Assembly: GCA_977030845.1 (NCBI GenBank)
Contig: OZ365110.1
Location: 38,564,001 to 38,628,000 of the forward strand
DNA: 64,000 nt
Direction of reading: 5' to 3'
DNA from: Fimbriosthenelais zetlandica
Taxonomy: Eukaryota
The position numbers were made by a program, and so were the translations under genes. The notes below the pieces were generated by a model, which did no database searches, was not told where the DNA came from, and saw only the letters and a list, made by a program, of their open reading frames with translations. This document shows, piece after piece, positions 1 through 45,002 of the stretch (the first letter of the stretch is position 1; every line of letters starts with the position of its first letter).

Positions 1-490
1 AGTCTTTTACCAAAGAAATAATGATACAAAATCTACCCATCAATGTAAACAAAATCATCCCGAATGTTAAAAATATAATATCATCCATCTATTTATATAT
101 ACATGTAATGTCAAATTCTTAACATGCATACAGTCGTGCCTGTAGCTCTATTCATAACAAATTATATCAAATTCTATATTAATTGCGTGGTCCTTCTCTG
201 CATGCGACTGATTGCTGGTTCTGTTACTCCTTTCAATCACAGTCCACGAAAGAGAAAATGAGAACATTTGACACATCGCATGCTTCAGGGGCTGTGTGTG
301 GGTGTGGGGGACCCGTTATAAATGTCAGCCTGGAATTTAACCTAATCTGCTAATCAATTGGTAATTTATTTCTTGGAGCATTACGTGAGGAACCATTGAA
401 TTGTCGGGCAATTAAAGATTAATTTAGAAATTCCACAGAGAAAGATCGCCTTCTGTGCGGGGAAGCTGGAGTCAGAATCAATGAGACCAC

Positions 491-723
491 TGTTATAGAT
501 CTAAATTCTATATATATATTATGTACAACCCTGTACATTACACACCCTGTAGCGTCGTCCAATCCTAGCTTAGGATTGGGGGACGCTACCCTAATGAGCA
601 TATAAATAAAGCGAGCACCTCGGTGACTCGCCAGTCTAAATCTGACCCTGTAACTGAACGGACTTACTTATCATTACCTCTCAAACTACCTACACATTCA
701 TACGACAATAGACATTCATCTCA
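491..723 (+). repeat. 5' LTR (233 bp)
   Basis: Starts TGTTATAG and ends CATCTCA; 491-638 is identical to 4110-4257; contains TATAAATAAA (overlapping TATA and AATAAA) at 601-610. Confidence 0.95.
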
Positions 724-724
724 C

Positions 725-739
725 TGGTGGAGAAGCCCG
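725..739 (+). other. Primer-binding site, probably complementary to a tRNA-Ala 3' end
   Basis: TGGTGGAGAAGCCCG starts 1 nt after the LTR-terminal CA. TGGTGGAG is the complement of ...CTCCACCA, typical of tRNA-Ala 3' ends; the isoacceptor assignment is from memory. Confidence 0.75.
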
Positions 740-1638
740 AAATTTCGATACCTCTCAACATCACAATATTACTTTGTGGATTTTGCAAAAATTGGAATTT
801 TTGGACCGATTCAGGGGTTAGACTCCTTCTCCTACCGCCACAGTTCCAGCCAACACCCACGGAACTACATCAAGACCATGAGGATTTCAAAATGATAAAT
901 TGGAGAGAGGACTGTTATAGGTGTGGTTTCACATGGACAGCCACACATCAGTGTCCTGCCTATAACAGATCCTGCTTCAAATGTGGCAAAACAGGCCACT
1001 TTGCAAGACGCTGCCTTACACGGACTATTCAAAATGATAAGGCGCGCCATAGAGATGTGACAAACCTCCCTTTTACTCTAAAGACAAACGGACTCCATAA
1101 AACAACACGGGAGGAACCTAGCCATGGAAGTTACGTACATGTATATCGAAAACCATGGAAAAGAAGAAAGAGAAACTGGCAACGATGCCAAAGGACTAAA
1201 AGACATAACACCAGAAACAGCAATGCCACATGTGAGTGCACCCACTTGAGGGGCAAAGTGGCGGAATTAAGCTCACAAGTACAAAACTTGACCAAGGAGC
1301 TTGAAACATATAAGGCAGCAAGTGTCAATCAGACATCAAAGGTTGACATTGGTGTTAATACCGAAGACTGTACAGGACCATCAAGAGTAGACATTGCAGT
1401 GAGTACAGAGAACCCCGAGAAATGTGAGGAATCCACACAAACTGTGCATAGGACCTTGTTTGAAACTGCACAATTACAATATATGATTAATAAAATTATA
1501 GGCACATACTTGGGACGACAACAGGAGCTTAATGACGTTCATTATAAACGTATGGAAAACCAACTAAGCTTCATGCTACGTTGGATATTAGATCATCCAC
1601 GTGGTACGCAAGAAGAACAAATAGAAAACTATAGGTAG
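727..1638 (+). CDS. Retroelement Gag-derived nucleocapsid-like protein (two Cys/His knuckles, basic stretch, coiled coil); first in-frame ATG at 892 gives 248 aa
   Basis: Uninterrupted 303-codon frame. CYRCG-x6-HQCPA (913-954) is followed by the canonical CX2CX4HX4C knuckle CFKCGKTGHFARRC (973-1014), a pairing typical of Gypsy-type Gag C-termini. Lies between PBS and 3' LTR. Confidence 0.85.
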   Translation: MEKPEISIPLNITILLCGFCKNWNFWTDSGVRLLLLPPQFQPTPTELHQDHEDFKMINWREDCYRCGFTWTATHQCPAYNRSCFKCGKTGHFARRCLTRTIQNDKARHRDVTNLPFTLKTNGLHKTTREEPSHGSYVHVYRKPWKRRKRNWQRCQRTKRHNTRNSNATCECTHLRGKVAELSSQVQNLTKELETYKAASVNQTSKVDIGVNTEDCTGPSRVDIAVSTENPEKCEESTQTVHRTLFETAQLQYMINKIIGTYLGRQQELNDVHYKRMENQLSFMLRWILDHPRGTQEEQIENYR

Positions 1639-1694
1639 GACTTGCATGTATTGTTCAAACCAGGAAATATATATAATTATCTATTAGCATCTTA

Positions 1695-1724
1695 AAATTC
1701 CTCATTGACACTGGGGCAACATAA
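1695..1724 (+). pseudogene. Relic of a retroviral-type aspartic protease active site
   Basis: AAA TTC CTC ATT GAC ACT GGG GCA ACA TAA = KFLIDTGAT*, about 60 bp after the ORF stop, where protease follows Gag in Gypsy elements; in-frame stops on both sides. Confidence 0.65.
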
Positions 1725-4089
1725 TTTTGTCTATATCATTTGTTTTCTCAAATAGTAAAACAAGCATGTAATTTTTTTGTGTGTGCGTATTAATATATTT
1801 TTTTTCTGGATTACTTCTCGACTTTTAAGTGATTTCATCAAAATTAATCCATGACTTTGGCTTAATCCCAATTCACTTTCTTTAGTTCAAAGACATACCT
1901 CCAAATTCAAAGGGACTCAACCATCCCCCTTGACATAAACAGTAAACCTTAATTCTTAAACAGTCGCATACTTTCCCATCATTAAGGAACCCATCCAAAT
2001 TCTCATCCCCAATAATCTGTATATGTTCAAACACTGTAATGTCATCACAGAGGTTAATGACCAACGCTTATCAGCAACTATGTTTATGGCAGGAGCGGAT
2101 TGGTTTGTGTGCACCCATATGTCAGTCGCCGTGACCTCTGTAATGAGCCAGGTGGTTTGAATATCAAGCCACCCTTCCCCATGACGCTTCGTCGGAGTGC
2201 GTCCTTGCTGTCGTCACTGTCATAAAGCTTTGTAGCTTCGTGCCGACTTGCCTTGACCAGTGACTAATAGACACCCCCAAATTCCCTTTGATCTGTTGTC
2301 ACTTGGTCATTTATACGGCTAACGCCATAGGAGCACGTGGAATCAGCTGCACCCGCGTGAAAAAACAGCTCAGTTGAGCCAAGCCCAAAGCCAGCTGAGT
2401 TGCTCCTTCATGTAGCACAGCTACGCTCTTGTGCTTAGGCAGTGACTAACCATAAATTGGTGGCAGCTTGGTAACGTGCATCATGGATAGGCTGAGGCAC
2501 TAATTAGTGTCTCTGATTTCTGGCTCATTTACAAGTCTTACTGGCTATTGAGGTGTCTCATTGATTTAATTTGTGACTGCTATATTACATGTGTCAATGC
2601 TGACTAGGTCAATTGGTTTAATAATTTCTGAACTAGTGTTATTCAAATATTCAATTTCATAAAAGCACACAGTATTTTTTTTTTCGGTTTACCTCTATAT
2701 TATATTATTCAAATTACTGCAAATTGCTTAATACAAATCCCCCTTACCTGTTACCCAGTGTCATACAAAATTCATAAGGAAACATTACATTTAATGATGT
2801 ATACTTTGATAATATTTTACCTTTGATATTTGAACTTTGGACAGATGCACTTTCTGGTATATCAAATAATTTATTTTTGAATCTTTTGCCTGGTTTGTTC
2901 AATGGTTATTATGCAATGTCTGTATGCACTAGCAGTACCAGAAACCCAAGTTACTCACGTGGCCCTTATCCAACTCAACTCGTGGCCATTATCTCCCCAT
3001 CAGGAAGTGCGCCACCCCAGCCGCGTGTATATGTATGCCATATGGACTCATTAATGACACTTGGAGGGCAAATTGAATTTTAGAAACTTTAAACGCGCCC
3101 ATTTCAAACGCAGAAAATATTCTTCATTAACAACTTGAAGACACTGATCATTTAAGCAATTATGATTTAGGGTAAAATAACCTGTATTGTGTGTGTGTTT
3201 TTTTTTGTTTTTTTTTAATGTTTGAAATTAATGGTATTAATTATGTGTGTTTTTTTACTTTGTGGTCGGGACAGAGTGTATGTCCAGTCAATAAGTTTCA
3301 ATGCTCAACCAACTTAACAGTTAACATGTTTAAAAGTTCTATATAAGGAGTGAATACATTTTCTCGGTTATCAAGTACATGTATGGCGATAGAACTGCAT
3401 CCTTATCAATTCGATTTAATTAGTTTTCTTATAATAAGGGTCCAAATATATATGTACTGTGCCCCGCCTTGTGAAAGCGTCACGTCGACACTTGAGCGCG
3501 TGTACACTAAACCGTCACTTCGTTCCACCCCATTATCACATAACAGATAACATAGCACCCTAAACTAACCCCACTCTGAGTTTATTATCAAGTAGCCGCT
3601 GCCAGATATAGAAGCCAGATTATTTGTCCAAATTATAAGTTGATTGGCAGCCGCGCCCCTTTTATCACATCTCTCTCATCTTTTATTATTCTGTAATTAC
3701 TAAGTGTCTTGTGTTTGAATTTAGCTTAAATATTAAAATTGGTTCGCACCCCACCCCCCTACGGGGAGGGGAGGGATGATTCCCGTCATTATCATTGTTA
3801 CATTTTAGAGTATAATGACAATATGTTTTAACTTTGAATCTGAATGTCACCTCAAGCGATTGACTCCCCAATATTCGTTAAAACAGCTTTCATTAATTTA
3901 GGTAATTAACAATCTCCATCTCGTTCAGTTTTGTTGATTTATGTTAAACAACAATTTCAAACCTTATGTTTAATCAATATCTCTTGTAATCTTATCTATT
4001 GTAAACCTCACTAACTTCTCCCAGAATGAATTACTAAAAACTAGTTAGCTAGATGATGCCTCCTCAAACTCTTTGAGCAGGCATCATCT

Positions 4090-4106
4090 GGAAAGGGGGG
4101 AGGGAG
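4090..4106 (+). other. Polypurine tract
   Basis: GGAAAGGGGGGAGGGAG, ending 3 nt before the 3' LTR TG. Confidence 0.9.
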
Positions 4107-4109
4107 TGA

Positions 4110-4344
4110 TGTTATAGATCTAAATTCTATATATATATTATGTACAACCCTGTACATTACACACCCTGTAGCGTCGTCCAATCCTAGCTTAGGATTGGGG
4201 GACGCTACCCTAATGAGCATATAAATAAAGCGAGCACCTCGGTGACTCGCCAGTCTAGAACTGACCCTGAACTTATACAGACTTACGTTTACTTATCTCT
4301 CTAAAATACTCATAACATAATAACTACAATAGTCATTCATCTCA
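4110..4344 (+). repeat. 3' LTR (235 bp)
   Basis: Direct repeat of 491-723; ends ATTCATCTCA, followed by the TSD CCAC. Confidence 0.95.
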
Positions 4345-7292
4345 CCACCTTCAAATTATCAGGCTCGAGTGGTGGGAAAAGGTGAATATCAAATTGATCT
4401 GTCATTCTGAAAAACCACGAAAATAGAACGCCAATTAAATTAATAATCTTAGAAAAAACATCTTCCAGGACTTAATATACGAAGTGGCCTTCACATCTCC
4501 GGTCAGTATCTGTACCTCTCTATCTTATATATCAAAGTAATTTTGGTTCATTGACTTCATGTACTAGGTTATTACCAGTAAAAGTTTGGTTTAGGAAATA
4601 TTGAATTACATAATGAGATTCATAAATTTATGAATTAATTATGGGGTAATAAAATATGATTAAGGGATTCAAAATAAACGAAGTATTAAGTTATATGTCC
4701 CTTGTGTGGTAGTTAGTTCATTCAATCAATCAATTCAAAAAGAGGCAGGTCAGAAGTTATCATGGGGAAATGCAAAGGTTAATTTGTTATGGGCCCATGT
4801 GGAGAAGTCAACTGATTTATGTTCCCTCATGCCTCCACAGACAGCAAGAGAAAGTGAGGAGAGTGAGAGAGAGGATATTCTTCTTCATTTCTCCAGTCTT
4901 ATCAATGTAGAAATCTCTTGCTTCCACAAAATGGAATCAATACAGATATATTGCAAACATACACAGTGAGGGAGCACACTGCCTGCAGGATAAAGCCATC
5001 AAATGTAGATCTCGAGCACCCACCATCGTTAGAAATATAGTCTTTGACTAACATGAAAGGATCTGGGGTGGATGATTTGTGGGTGAAAACATGGCGGCGC
5101 CCATTGATCTGAGCGATAATTGCTTGCACAATGAGCCAATAATGTCCTAATCTGACGAGCTGTAAGAAATGGCCCCCGAAGTGGCGTGTGCTTCGTTACA
5201 AATCCCGATATCTGACATTACAGCGCTCAAACTGATACAAGGAGATAAAAAGGAGCTGCTTTTCCCATCAGGCACAGGGGCTGGTGGTAGGAGATCGGGT
5301 GGATCTTCTGATGTTCAGTTTGCCTTAGCACTGATACTCCCAGCCAACACTCGGCTGATCTCTGGACTGGTGTGGCATAAAAGGGTGTACCCCTCTCTTG
5401 GAATAGTGGTATTCGACTGCAATGGTTTCGATACAATAAGGACATCAGTCTCATGCATGCCTAATTATAAATTAGGCCTAGCTGTTCGAACTTGCATGCA
5501 TGCACATAATAGACAAGTCGACTAATTAAGCCTGGAACACACCATGCACATGCGTTCATCTGTAACGACAGATTCTGCTCTTTATGCAAATACAAGTGGG
5601 CATCTCCGATGTTGCTTTAAAAGGTAGTGCAGATATCTGTTTTCAAGCCTGCTGAAGAAGCCCAGATTTGGTCCATTCATCAGGCATCTGAAATACACGC
5701 ACACTGGTCAATTTGGGCATGCCTTCTAAATCCTATTGATTTTGGCCTGTTAATTGCATCCACATCCAAGTAATACCCTCATATTTCTTTCAGTTTCAAT
5801 ATTCTTCCAAAAGAAACCAAAGAATGTCCAAGGACATTTCGATGAGGGGACCATTACTGTAACACCACCAGTTCGATCCCTGCCTACCTTATCGCTACAG
5901 AAAGAAGCGATGGAGAATTCAATTAGATGATGGCACATTCCGGGCCCACCAACCTCCATTCATCATCATTCCACAAGGGGCCGCCTTACACGCACAATTA
6001 CACCGCCAACGAGTCTCCGCGTCCCTTGGCCAATTGCACTGCTCGGATCGTCTGCTGTTTGAGCGCGATGGATCAGTCTGCCGAACTAACATCCTTAAGC
6101 CTTATTTGTACAAGTGATAACAAAGATCACGTGGCCGTGGTTAGCCAGTACGAAATATGCTTGTGGGACGCGGTGGAAAGCGGAAAACGAGGTTGTATCT
6201 CGGTCCCGCGACAATGTATGAGACTGGGGTGTGTGGAGACGCCTAGCGGCACTCGTGGGGAATGGCAGATCAATTGGCCGTTGGTGGGAGCATCGTGTCG
6301 CCTGCTTTCAACGATAAACCGGTTATTTTTCAATCTCTCTCGAGCAAATTGAATGAAATGCACGCGCGACCTCCAGGAAAATTGGGTTTCTTCTTGGGCG
6401 CAGTAGTGTGGGTCAGGTTGTTACGATGAAGGCGGTAGAGGGCAGGTTTTTCTGCCTCGCATGAATGGGACCGTGCGCCTACACTTCCGGCGGCCATGAT
6501 TTGTCTTGATGAAGAGGGCTAGGATTGATATGTCAATGAGATAAATGGTGGAGCGTGGGGGTCTTCCTTCTTGATGCTGCATCAGTGGTATACCACCAGC
6601 CCCAGCGACGCTCTGTTAGCCCAATTGGATGAGGATCATTCTTCTAACGATGGACGAAAAACACACCAATTTATGGCGCCGCCTGCCTCTTGCCCGCCAC
6701 AATAGATGCAGCCTAATTGAACCTTGATAGGACGCCGCCCAGAGAAGGAGCACATTCCGCGACAAAGTCAATTGATTCGCGGCGACGCAGGCGAAATATT
6801 CGCCGACATTTGGCGGTGTGGGCTGATTGTTTCTAGCGCCATCAATCAGTTCATTCCTGACGGCCAGATCTCATTCTCAGCCTATCAGAGTAATTGACGC
6901 CGCCGGTTTGAGCCGAGCCAGGGGCTGGTCGAGAGGAGAAGATGGTAATATTATGGGATGGCAAGGATCATTTTGATCAGCGCCAGCTCGCGGCGATGAA
7001 GGAGACATTACTTGCAATTATCACCACACTGTGTCGACCTCGACAGACGACAATTTTCTCCCGGCATCGTCATCTCGTTATGTATCTCGCGAGGAACGAG
7101 ATCAAAGTGAGAGTCGAGCGTGGCTTGGACTCTGATGAGCCCCGAGCAGTGATATGGTGAGAAATGACGAGAACTTACGATATTGCCGTGATGAGGAGAT
7201 AGCAAGAGGAAGAGATGGTTCTTAACTAAATTGTATCCGTGAGAGGAAGGGAGAGGATTATAGGGAGAGGCAGAAAGGGAGTAAGAGAGATA

Positions 7293-7328
7293 GGGGATGG
7301 GGTGGGGGAGGGAGGGAGGGTGGGTGGG
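7293..7328 (+). repeat. G-rich tract, potential G-quadruplex
   Basis: GGGGATGGGGTGGGGGAGGGAGGGAGGGTGGGTGGG: eight G-runs of at least 3 with 1-2 nt loops. Confidence 0.6.
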
Positions 7329-10300
7329 AGCGTGAGAAGCATAAATAACATTGTTATCGATGTATTATGTATACATGTATTAATATAGGCCTACCTTTGA
7401 TTGCCTACTCTTCCAGCAAGCTTTCATTTCAGATGAAAACGTGAAAGAAGATGAAGTTTCAGATATCAATTGGAAATTATATGACTAGTGATATCTTTCC
7501 ATTTTAATTCAAGGACAACCTTTCAATTTTCCAATCTTGGAGTCTTATAACAAAGATTGAGCGCTTTACCTCGCTGTCACATTATTGAAAATAAAATTGA
7601 AAGATGTGTAAATCAGAAAATGGAATATGATACCATGAACTCGTCATGAAGGCAATTTAAATGAAATATGCTGCTATACAACATAACAAACTTTTTTCTT
7701 CAATCTTGTCAATTTCCAAACAATTCCTGTTTACATGAAAACGGTGTGTACACCTTTTTGACATTAACTTTCAAGACACGTTCAAATGTTCGGCTTTGAA
7801 TTCCAGATATCTGGATTTTATTCAATTTAGAATGTTACCAGAGCTTCATCAAGTCAGGAAAAACACTGGCTAAGATATCCCAGACGCGACCAGGTCGTCA
7901 TATGAAACGCAGCAAAAAGAGCGAGCTGGGGGAGAAATCACCAGATACTCGCAATATCATTGACCTCGAGGGGGTGCTGGGCTTGATCGCGCGTTTCCCC
8001 GTCCAGGCTATTGCTATGGCGACCTCACAGACCTGCGCGCGCCACACAATCGACTCTCACCGCAAAATGTCGTCTGCCATTTCGGACCACGTGGTATCTA
8101 TCTGCTCGGGGCTCCCTCTAGTGCTTGATGGGGCAGGTAATGCCAGGGTGATGAGACTGGAGGATGAAACCTAATGGGACGCCGGCGGGAGGGCTGTGCA
8201 GCTATGAGAAAAGCAGGCGTTACTATGGCATCCATACGCTAACCCCCTCCTCTCCCGACCATCCAAGTGTTATGTTAACTCTGTAGGTCGCATTGTCGAT
8301 GGAGGTGTCTCTCTCCTCCTCCTACTCCTCCTCACTTTCCTCTAACCCGAGAAGGAAGATAGATTTGCTTGGTGGGAGGGAAATCACTTACAGTCGAGGC
8401 CTGTGCCTGATTATTAGGACTGATGAAAATCCCTTTCCCCCGCTCATTCGAAAGCTGAGGGCCTCATCTCCATAAGTCAGAAATTCATCAAGCTTTCCCT
8501 TCAGGTCGTCGCTAGGGGCGCTAATTGTAATGGCGCGAGAGGAGGCTACTCATTAATTGTTATTTGATCGTCACCGCAGGTCGCTGGTGCGTCGCCAGCG
8601 ACGAGCTGGCGATCAATTGTCACCGTGGCTGTGAGAAAGATCAGTTTGGTAAATGTATGCAGGCAGAGGGTCGGGACTGGGTGGAACAATGCGCTAATTG
8701 GGCAGGGACAAAGTACACTAATGACAATGCCTGCAAGCTATGTGCATAAAAGTCATCCACATCTTATTTCTCACAGAAAATAATCCAAACTGAAACTCAT
8801 AATTACGCTATATATTTTTCCAGTCGATAATTTCATATTACAGTACCCTTGGGATCGACGTTGAGGTTATAGGACTATTATAATAAATAATCGCTCAAAA
8901 AGTCATGGTAATTCAGTGATTAAATTGTTCAGAGGTCAGGTCCAGATTTGGAATTTCATACTTAATTCGTATAGCCCTTTATTGCCACAGCAGCAGCCAT
9001 AATAATAGAGATATGAGAATTGCGAGGTTAGGGGTCCTGGCATTGCTGTCATATTCATTTACAAAAATGCAGCATAGAATGTGAGGATGTATGCATAGAC
9101 AACTCATCACAATATGATTGCAATTTAACTGCTGGAAAATAGCATAATCATTTATTCTATTTGTAGGCATATGAAAGAAAGCTTGAGGCATTTAAAAGCA
9201 GAGTTACTTCCACCTCATTTATGTAACCTATATACTTACAAAAATTCAATAATATTACCCTTTTTTGACACAACAGAGCATATAACTCTGCGAAAAGGTA
9301 AATGGTGTAAATAAAGAGGCTTCATAAAAACTGTATATAATGAAGGTTGAGGTGGAAGTGTGGTACTGCTATATTCATTAGGACCTCACTGCTGTATCTG
9401 AATGCGTTCAATGTGTGAAAGCATTCAGGCCGTCTTCTTTCTGTAACCTTCTCTAAGCGTTTCACTCGCGCCCCATGTGAGAACAGGAGATAATTAACCT
9501 CCATCCATATCATTTATCCTCGCCATTTCCTGACGGCCTCATCCAAACTGACTTGTAAAACCTGCAGCGAGTGGAAAGAAGACAGATGCACCTTGCCGGG
9601 CCTCTGATGGGCCTGATGGCCTGCTAGCGGCCAGCAGACATGTAGTCGCTCAAGGGACGCGACGCGATAAAATTACAACAGATTACCAGGCGTGTCCGCT
9701 CGCCAGGAAGCCAAGCCAAACGACCTGACCCGGAAGTGCCTTCCAACCAGCGCTGGTTCCCTGAGACTGCGCAGTATAGCTAAGCTCGGAGCGCCCCCGA
9801 GTAGCCTCAGCGGGGAAAGAGGCAAATGCTTGTGTTATTCCGAGAAGTGACAACCAATGCTTCCATCCGTCCTAATAAAATCTGAATTCCATCATCTCTA
9901 TCGTAATTATCAGCGACAAGTGTGTAGATTTATTGGATGGGGCACACGGCTTGGGCACAACAACATGGCGCCGTTGATGGCACTGTTCCATAATGCACCA
10001 GAATAGGGTTTGGGTTCGATGGTACGACCCGCAGGGCAATGACACTGAGATGGCAAGCATGCGCACATTATTGCAAGCCCAGCCGGGGCTGAGGACGATG
10101 AATTATGTTGGTTAGACAGACCTATTTGATACCTCCAATAAGAAGTGAAATGAATTGACTGTTCAATGAAAAGCTATAGGCCTATGCTGGGTATAAAATG
10201 TCTGGGTCAGAGGGACTACAGCCTGTTTTATAAAAGGTCATCAGAAGATATTTCACTACAATCTATTTTGCCTGTAAATTGGATTTGTTTCAGCTTTTGA

Positions 10301-44918: not shown

Positions 44919-45002
44919 GTCAGGATGGCCGAGCGGTCTAAGGCGCTGCGTTCAGGTCGCAGTCCACTTCTGTGGGCGTGGGTTCGAATCCCACTTCTGA
45001 CA
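44919..45002 (+). tRNA. tRNA-Leu(CAG): tRNA-Leu (anticodon CAG), intronless, apparently intact
   Basis: GTCAGGATGGCCGAGCGGTCTAAGGCGCTGCGTTCAGGTCGCAG...GGGTTCGAATCCCACTTCTGACA. Acceptor stem GTCAGGA/TTCTGAC pairs; anticodon loop TTCAGGT with CAG at 44953-44955; long variable arm; A and B boxes; TTTT terminator at 45007-45010. Confidence 0.97.

Follow-up and report, generated by a model that had tools for sequence, protein, structure and literature searches.

A pol-less satellite of errantivirus-type elements in Fimbriosthenelais zetlandica carries a selected, knuckle-first gene with predicted LC8-binding sites

The window analyzed here is a stretch of 64,000 nucleotides of Fimbriosthenelais zetlandica (assembly GCA_977030845.1, contig OZ365110.1, positions 38,564,001 to 38,628,000 of the forward strand), and it contains a 3.85 kb element that is a pol-less satellite of errantivirus-type elements with a gene of its own. 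The element is flanked by a 4-bp target site duplication (TSD; CCAC, 487..490 on the left and 4345-4348 on the right) and, with all its features on the + strand, begins with a 5' LTR of 233 bp (491..723) followed by a primer binding site (PBS, 725..739), and ends with a polypurine tract (PPT, 4090..4106) and a 3' LTR of 235 bp (4110..4344). The TG..CA ends of the LTRs, together with the PBS, the PPT and the 4-bp TSD, are those of a Ty3/gypsy-type non-autonomous element, and the initial annotation had recognized a pol-less LTR element; helper pol matches the element solely in a 92-bp protease scrap, and a reverse transcriptase (RT) and integrase of its own are absent. Positions 1-8000 of the window hold no other ORF longer than 124 codons, and a scan of positions 1-5000 for the hammerhead ribozyme that marks retrozymes gave 0 Rfam matches at E 0.5. 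Troyka elements, as described in the available part of PMC12440569, differ from the window element in their 3-bp TSD and CG ends. The PBS, which we infer to be of the tRNA-Ala type, is common to the helper described below, and its first 10 nt also occur in two further families (B and C); one pattern search found no matching tRNA gene. A tRNA-Leu(CAG) gene was located by ARAGORN at window positions 44919-45002. Both LTRs contain a 41-nt hairpin (549-589 and 4168-4208, z -4.7) whose stem differs between copies by paired changes.

The accessory ORF (892..1638) encodes 248 aa from an ATG in good context (AAAATG), 167 nt past the PBS (725), to a TAG at 1636-1638. An upstream ORF of 5 codons (878..895) ends in a stop that overlaps with this start codon (ATGA), and 16 of the 16 copies listed have such an ORF, of 5-10 codons. 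The roughly 60 codons before the ATG, which had been judged too few for a capsid domain, are open in the window copy and shared by two others, but most copies change frame there. From the ATG the knuckles do come first, since only 7 residues precede the first Cys, and the HMM and structure predictions proposed earlier found zf-CCHC and no capsid: no capsid Pfam family matched before the knuckles, whereas true Gags score, and the monomer model, of low confidence (pLDDT 42), contains none. The double knuckle (913..1014), the most constrained part of the ORF, combines a non-canonical CX2CX7HXC (C8-C21) with a CX2CX4HX4C (C28-C41) that matched zf-CCHC at E 4e-5, the single Pfam family above cut-off; PDB sequence matches were nucleocapsid knuckles (HIV/EIAV NC, E 5e-4). 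The Arg-rich stretch and coiled coil that had been read from the sequence were also recovered, the former at 1147..1206 (residues 86-105), Arg/Lys-rich and basic in every copy though its sequence differs, and the latter as a CxC followed by a predicted coiled-coil helix (1231..1335; residues 117-148 in the structure model), with the CxC and core leucines found in families B and C as well. Three LC8-like motifs follow in a predicted disordered linker (1342..1446), and then a predicted helical C-terminal region (1438..1590) that occurs as two divergent alleles among the copies. An insertion of 1 nt, private to the window copy, accounts for the last two residues of its ORF (YR); the remaining 12 whole ORFs end IEN-stop.

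Overlapping the end of the ORF, at 1629..1720, lies a non-coding scrap of the 5' end of helper pol with the LIDTGA protease motif (71% DNA identity). It starts at a donor-like GGTAGGA; the donor-like site at the ORF stop is helper pol sequence, and no splice acceptor for it was found by simple pattern. The scrap is dead as coding sequence; its DNA is not simply decaying, since few parts of the element vary as little (pi 0.008 at 1607-1754). A second block, at 2121..2491, derives from the helper interval between pol and env (88% identity). Copies vary least within this block (pi 0.005-0.014), its sense strand is structured (z -5.4, against -4.2 for the helper counterpart; 30 shuffles) and 5 of 115 pairs have two-sided changes, and for these reasons it is likely a cis element.

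The helper was sought with the PBS, which gave 57 matches in the genome, 20 of which were fetched. Four of the 20 share the satellite LTR, another 14, with an ACCCGG or other form of the site, have nothing in common with the element, and the remaining 2 were chance matches. The existence of a helper, foreseen in the initial annotation, was borne out by L066 and L069, in which gag, pol and an env-like frame lie between identical 235-bp LTRs. The pol of 1373 codons contains protease, RT, RNase H and integrase (Pfam), giving the errantivirus gag-pol-env order with a gypsy Pol; the third frame shows a cleavage-type basic site and, towards its C-terminus, hydrophobic segments, with no Pfam match on the part scanned, and the Gag has a weak Ty3 capsid match and an Arg/Ser-rich tail but no knuckle. 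Helper and satellite share the LTR with the PBS and first leader bases (491-756), the protease scrap, the pol-env block and the 3' end (4000-4344, 98%), and an element of the L066/L069 type likely supplies the satellite with particles and enzymes. The 3' LTR of the window element is of helper type (2 of 235 sites differ), and the 5' LTR is identical to it over its first 145 columns and then turns to satellite type; L058 has the same helper/satellite split between its two LTRs, again in the distal part. Such mixed LTRs would mean that satellite and helper RNA had been packaged together, or may have arisen by gene conversion instead. Two other pairs of elements, L046/L047 and L045/L048, were rejected as helpers on account of a different PBS and no shared DNA. 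L046 and L047 are gag-pol-env-like gypsy elements with a knuckle-bearing Gag and identical 387-bp LTRs, with at least 4 matches in the genome search made with the ORF.

A sibling satellite (L036-L038, L058, L140-L149, L152-L156) has the LTR, protease scrap, structured block and 3' part of the coding satellite and, in place of the gene, a different and apparently non-coding 700-bp slot, without an ORF above 80 codons in 14 of the 14 slots read. The longest frame in these slots, of 80 aa, has KETGTQDI as its C-terminus. Full-slot copies with 98-100% identity number at least 10, and because the gene-less sibling is so represented the protein is not required in cis; it is an aid rather than a requirement, or it is supplied in trans.

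A genome search with the ORF returned 54 matches, and 19 copies of the same family as the window element (family A) were read, namely the window copy, L021-L035, L039, L040 and L049. Each copy has a different TSD, and LTR pairs differ at 0-2 sites in 16 of 19 (coding and sibling copies taken together), therefore the family moved recently. Because most copies are this young, a single open copy is weak evidence of selection, and the evidence rests on variation common to copies, which are mosaics of older variant blocks as template switching would be expected to give. The ORF is whole (245-253 aa) in 13 of the 19; the other six are broken (L030, L034, L035, L040, L049) or carry an in-frame deletion (L039), so broken copies, named beforehand as a sign against a selected gene, do occur, but most copies keep the ORF. 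A GY codon model on the 13 whole copies (null with omega fixed at 1, kappa on a grid) gave an omega of 0.46 overall, 0.34 for residues 1-186 including the LC8-like motifs (lnL -1680.1 versus -1698.1 at omega 1) and 1.42 for residues 187-246 (lnL -425.5 versus -425.8), the latter not different from 1, the likelihood test being rough because the copies are recombinant mosaics. Variants in the knuckles comprise 7 synonymous versus 3 replacement changes (on 27 versus 108 sites) and those in the motif region 12.5 versus 17.5 (on 27 versus 93 sites), and the two very different C-terminal alleles are separated by 33-35 replacement versus 7 synonymous changes. In a DNA alignment of 15 copies, which took in the broken L030 and L035, every shared indel in the ORF (7 of 7) has a length divisible by three, as against 0 of 2 private ones and 1 of 9 shared indels in the leader and post-ORF DNA. 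Residues 1-186 are thus under purifying selection. The earlier argument that an ORF staying open beside a decayed protease indicates selection was right about selection, as the dN/dS and the in-frame shared indels show, but not about the protease DNA.

The LC8-like motifs (1342-1365, 1387-1410 and 1426-1446, with VNT, VST and TQT anchors) lie where they had been described, although with anchors 15 and 12 residues apart they are only roughly evenly spaced, and the third alone has the TQT that had been attributed to the group. A typical LC8 anchor, in disorder, has Q at 0 between small branched residues (-1 and +1) and D, E or P at +2, and the rules given in the available part of Jespersen 2019 (PMC6607443) include a strong preference for the central Q. 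Motif 3 fits this anchor, with V or D at +2, and motifs 1 and 2 carry N and S or G at 0; in the second allele the motifs read GVNTD, AVGTD and STQTD, each keeping T at +1 followed by D at +2. The motif count by itself is not beyond chance, because shuffling the ORF protein 20,000 times gave three [TVIS][QNS]T anchors, a broad form, in about 10% of the shuffled sequences. In KANK1, weak sites bind LC8 cooperatively, and its best-predicted site in the available part of that report (bioRxiv 2025.07.16.665182) is ASRGVNTE, which motif 1 (VDIGVNTE) resembles in sharing GVNTE. The motif region is unstructured in the low-confidence monomer model, and a complex model of 4 host LC8 chains with two copies of residues 143-192 scored 0.57, versus 0.01 for the best of 3 controls, with contacts agreeing by at least 79% and partner pLDDT of at least 53; this score is rated weak, as 5 of 78 solved pairs and 4 of 180 mismatches reach that level, and the model may have reproduced LC8-peptide complexes already solved. 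Of 5 LC8 matches in the genome, at least 4 are loci of intact length. Four of the LC8 coding matches (L061-L064) are intron-free, two of them in tandem 2.5 kb apart. The ORF protein would likely bind host LC8, a prediction with weak independent support; LC8 motifs by themselves do not imply that it is tied to dynein transport.

Apart from the knuckles, alignments of the ORF with helper Gag, Pol and Env do not exceed those of shuffled sequences, and the same holds for a stretch of the coil that looked similar to a helix of helper Gag (THLR..V.NLTK). The ORF is not a Gag of the TR-GAG kind, as it has no capsid and does not resemble helper Gag, in DNA or protein, more than shuffles do. Nor is it a repurposed piece of the helper's own Gag: since helper Gag lacks both a knuckle and any resemblance to it, the ORF is a cassette foreign to the helper and imported. 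Its double knuckle is of the kind that ends the capsid-bearing Gags of another gypsy lineage (L045, P0100, P0103). Cassettes of the same build are carried by family B (L041-L043, L051; 3.3 kb, with another LTR and a whole ORF in 3 of 4) and family C (L044, L053), in which the ORF begins MxxWREDCYRCGF as in family A, with the start Met at the same place despite unrelated flanks and the CxC-coil kept; across the knuckles of the three families 18-23 of 41 third positions differ, versus 5-10 of 41 first or second positions. Only family A has the LC8-like trio: family B is without an anchor, and family C has one TQT, before the coil. Over 606 bp, family B is 96% identical to the pol-env interval of L102, a second helper with Pol and Gag 55% and 37% identical to those of the first; the fold of this retained block is not unusual (z -1.1, first 400 bases). 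As the same gene sits on the cis elements of two helpers, the cassette either predates the split of these helpers or moved between them. L096 and L097 are 2.8-kb Gag-only derivatives of L102 with LTRs 99% identical. No helper was found for family C, and the matches to its upstream probe were mostly to an inverted-repeat element. That element recurs at a spacing of about 8.1-8.2 kb (G000:C14:77434-118227, C31:1554871-1583054, C35:84-16759), suggesting tandem arrays.

Beyond this genome, a profile search of 1.8 billion proteins returned mostly plain knuckles, plus some proteins in which knuckles come first and are followed by a basic stretch and a coiled coil; where named, these come from the bivalves Saccostrea, Magallana and Mactra (e.g. 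XP_062593687, KAL4240728). In a non-redundant set of 10 such proteins, picked by architecture with the sequences already seen, [TVIS]QT was present in 7, with 10 matches observed versus 2.4 expected, although two of the ten matches look like coil sequence and two of the proteins are 41% identical. An unpicked but redundant split gave 18 versus 7.5 expected in 37 knuckle-first proteins and 2 versus 2.8 in 21 others. A profile of the external tails, with their basic RxRD..R and LPF motifs, matched no tail of family A, B or C, so this enrichment points to a class of architecture and not to orthology. Word-indexed homologue searches gave no protein near the length of the ORF product and none longer for residues 46-248, an alignment search found 6 homologues, atlas matches all stayed below 0.9, and a metagenome scan produced 34 knuckle-only matches. 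P0050 (XP_074097266), a wasp DnaJC7-like model, starts with a Gag-type double knuckle; a transposon exon may have been fused to a host gene there, or the annotation may be in error.

Every step beyond a selected gene in a satellite is one that we infer, and the reading we prefer, with a probability of about 0.5, is that the protein forms an LC8-braced RNA-binding dimer that favors the RNA that made it and raises the share of this RNA in helper particles. The knuckles and basic stretch would grip satellite RNA soon after translation, a cis preference that would be what allows selection on a gene carried by many copies. The coil and up to three LC8 dimers would form a two-headed RNA clamp, much as LC8 reportedly acts for Egalitarian, and the resulting RNP might be stabilized, dimerized or routed to the site of helper Gag assembly, by which the satellite would win a larger packaging share. 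The fast-changing C-terminal helices may be a contact with helper or host.

The protein could act instead by interference, binding helper RNA or Gag, lowering helper replication and freeing particles for satellites, for which the inhibitors of phage satellites and Ty1 p22 are models. We consider this unlikely. Satellites do outnumber the helper, 3 of 40 matches to the shared block lying in identified gag-pol elements, and the two C-terminal alleles resemble an arms-race surface, but the omega above 1 is not significant there; the gene-less sibling would gain in trans, yet a benefit shared in this way is harder to keep under purifying selection, and the missing resemblance to helper proteins means that the product is not a dominant-negative fragment. 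Rather improbable, too, is a silencing suppressor that shields element RNA from piRNA/siRNA or titrates LC8 off a silencing complex. The LC8-dimerized Piwi silencing complex is known from flies, LC8 is abundant here with its several intact-length loci, the anchorless family B does not fit, and a trans benefit invites cheaters. In favor of suppression, LC8 dimerizes the Piwi co-transcriptional silencing complex of Drosophila in the available parts of PMC7861614 and PMC7919418, and RNA binding with several LC8 sites would suit a decoy, as the variable C-terminus would suit host conflict.

We hold it very unlikely that the cassette was captured from a similarly built host gene and serves the host or is merely carried. 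The single match of another kind, L055:1709-2290 (G000:C10:36.2187 Mb), has the same double knuckle, a basic motif, a likely splice donor and no nearby PBS, is 82% identical to P0022 from another dataset and related to P0011, and is a probable spliced host gene, possibly a domesticated member. Its 80-residue N-terminal extension and a tail unlike that of the ORF argue against it as the source, the knuckle tree supports 2 of 30 branches, and selection acted along element lineages inserting at new sites, not at one locus. The least credible account, a neutral C-terminal half of Gag minus its capsid, open since the copies are young, can cite knuckles close to the ends of capsid-bearing Gags, the minority of copies without a whole ORF and a gene-less sibling that fares equally, but it is largely refuted by the omega of residues 1-186, the in-frame shared indels, the fixed place of the start Met in three families, and the failure of the genome search and, as a weak test, of 562 longer candidates to yield a longer protein carrying this tail.

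Among known systems, LARD and TRIM elements are non-coding, and TR-GAG and zebrafish BHIKHARI encode Gag only. The basic stretch, the predicted oligomerization and the structured RNA block form a layout like that of Rev/Rex-type proteins, such as Rev with its response element, and the structured block is also present in the gene-less sibling. Retroviral nucleocapsid shares the two zinc knuckles, but the ORF product is free-standing, with its own start codon and no capsid. Multivalent LC8 clients (KANK1, ASCIZ, Egalitarian) resemble it in having several weak motifs, short linkers and an adjacent self-association domain; the ORF differs in its three motifs only, its transposon origin and an LC8 binding that is predicted. 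The rotifer TelKA2n, as given in the available part of PMC5408684, is a non-autonomous LTR element that kept env. Like the satellite, LARD, TRIM, TR-GAG, BHIKHARI and TelKA2n keep LTR, PBS, PPT and cis blocks without Pol and use helper enzymes, but they retain nothing or a gene of the parent, whereas the satellite keeps a capsid-less gene foreign to the helper, and does so on the satellites of two helpers. The rotifer ORF3s are likewise captured genes common to diverse elements and thought to aid replication, but they sit after pol in autonomous elements and are of env, lipase and nuclease types, with no knuckle-first protein mentioned in the available part of that paper (PMC5408684). Errantivirus-type Ty3/gypsy elements of metazoans, as covered by the available part of PMC13524379, share with the helper the layout, LTRs, tRNA PBS and third frame, and the window element is a pol-less satellite of this type; the main text there, to that extent, contains none of the terms 'non-autonomous', 'zinc', 'knuckle', 'nucleocapsid' or 'accessory', and LTR pairs less than 5 kb apart were dropped. 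A literature search, with repeat databases outside its scope, found no description of this architecture, and a Repbase-type entry for the element may exist.

A wider reading, which we offer as tentative, is that gene-carrying errantivirus satellites are a class in which a portable cassette, assembled from nucleocapsid knuckles of another lineage, a coil and LC8 sites, moves from one helper's cis elements to another's and out-competes helper RNA for particles via LC8, with the TQT-rich bivalve proteins as further members. If true, such satellites would be the retroelement counterpart of phage satellites. This reading would also give a function class to unnamed bivalve knuckle-first proteins and would add LC8 to the host factors of retroelements. 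Non-autonomous LTR elements are usually taken as passive deletion products, and here one carries a selected gene that was never part of its helper. One genome holds the helper, the coding satellite, the non-coding sibling, a Gag-only derivative and the likely footprints of co-packaging, and the system is a natural test of how selection can act on a trans-acting protein when the parasite that encodes it has many copies, and of how parasites cheat on one another.
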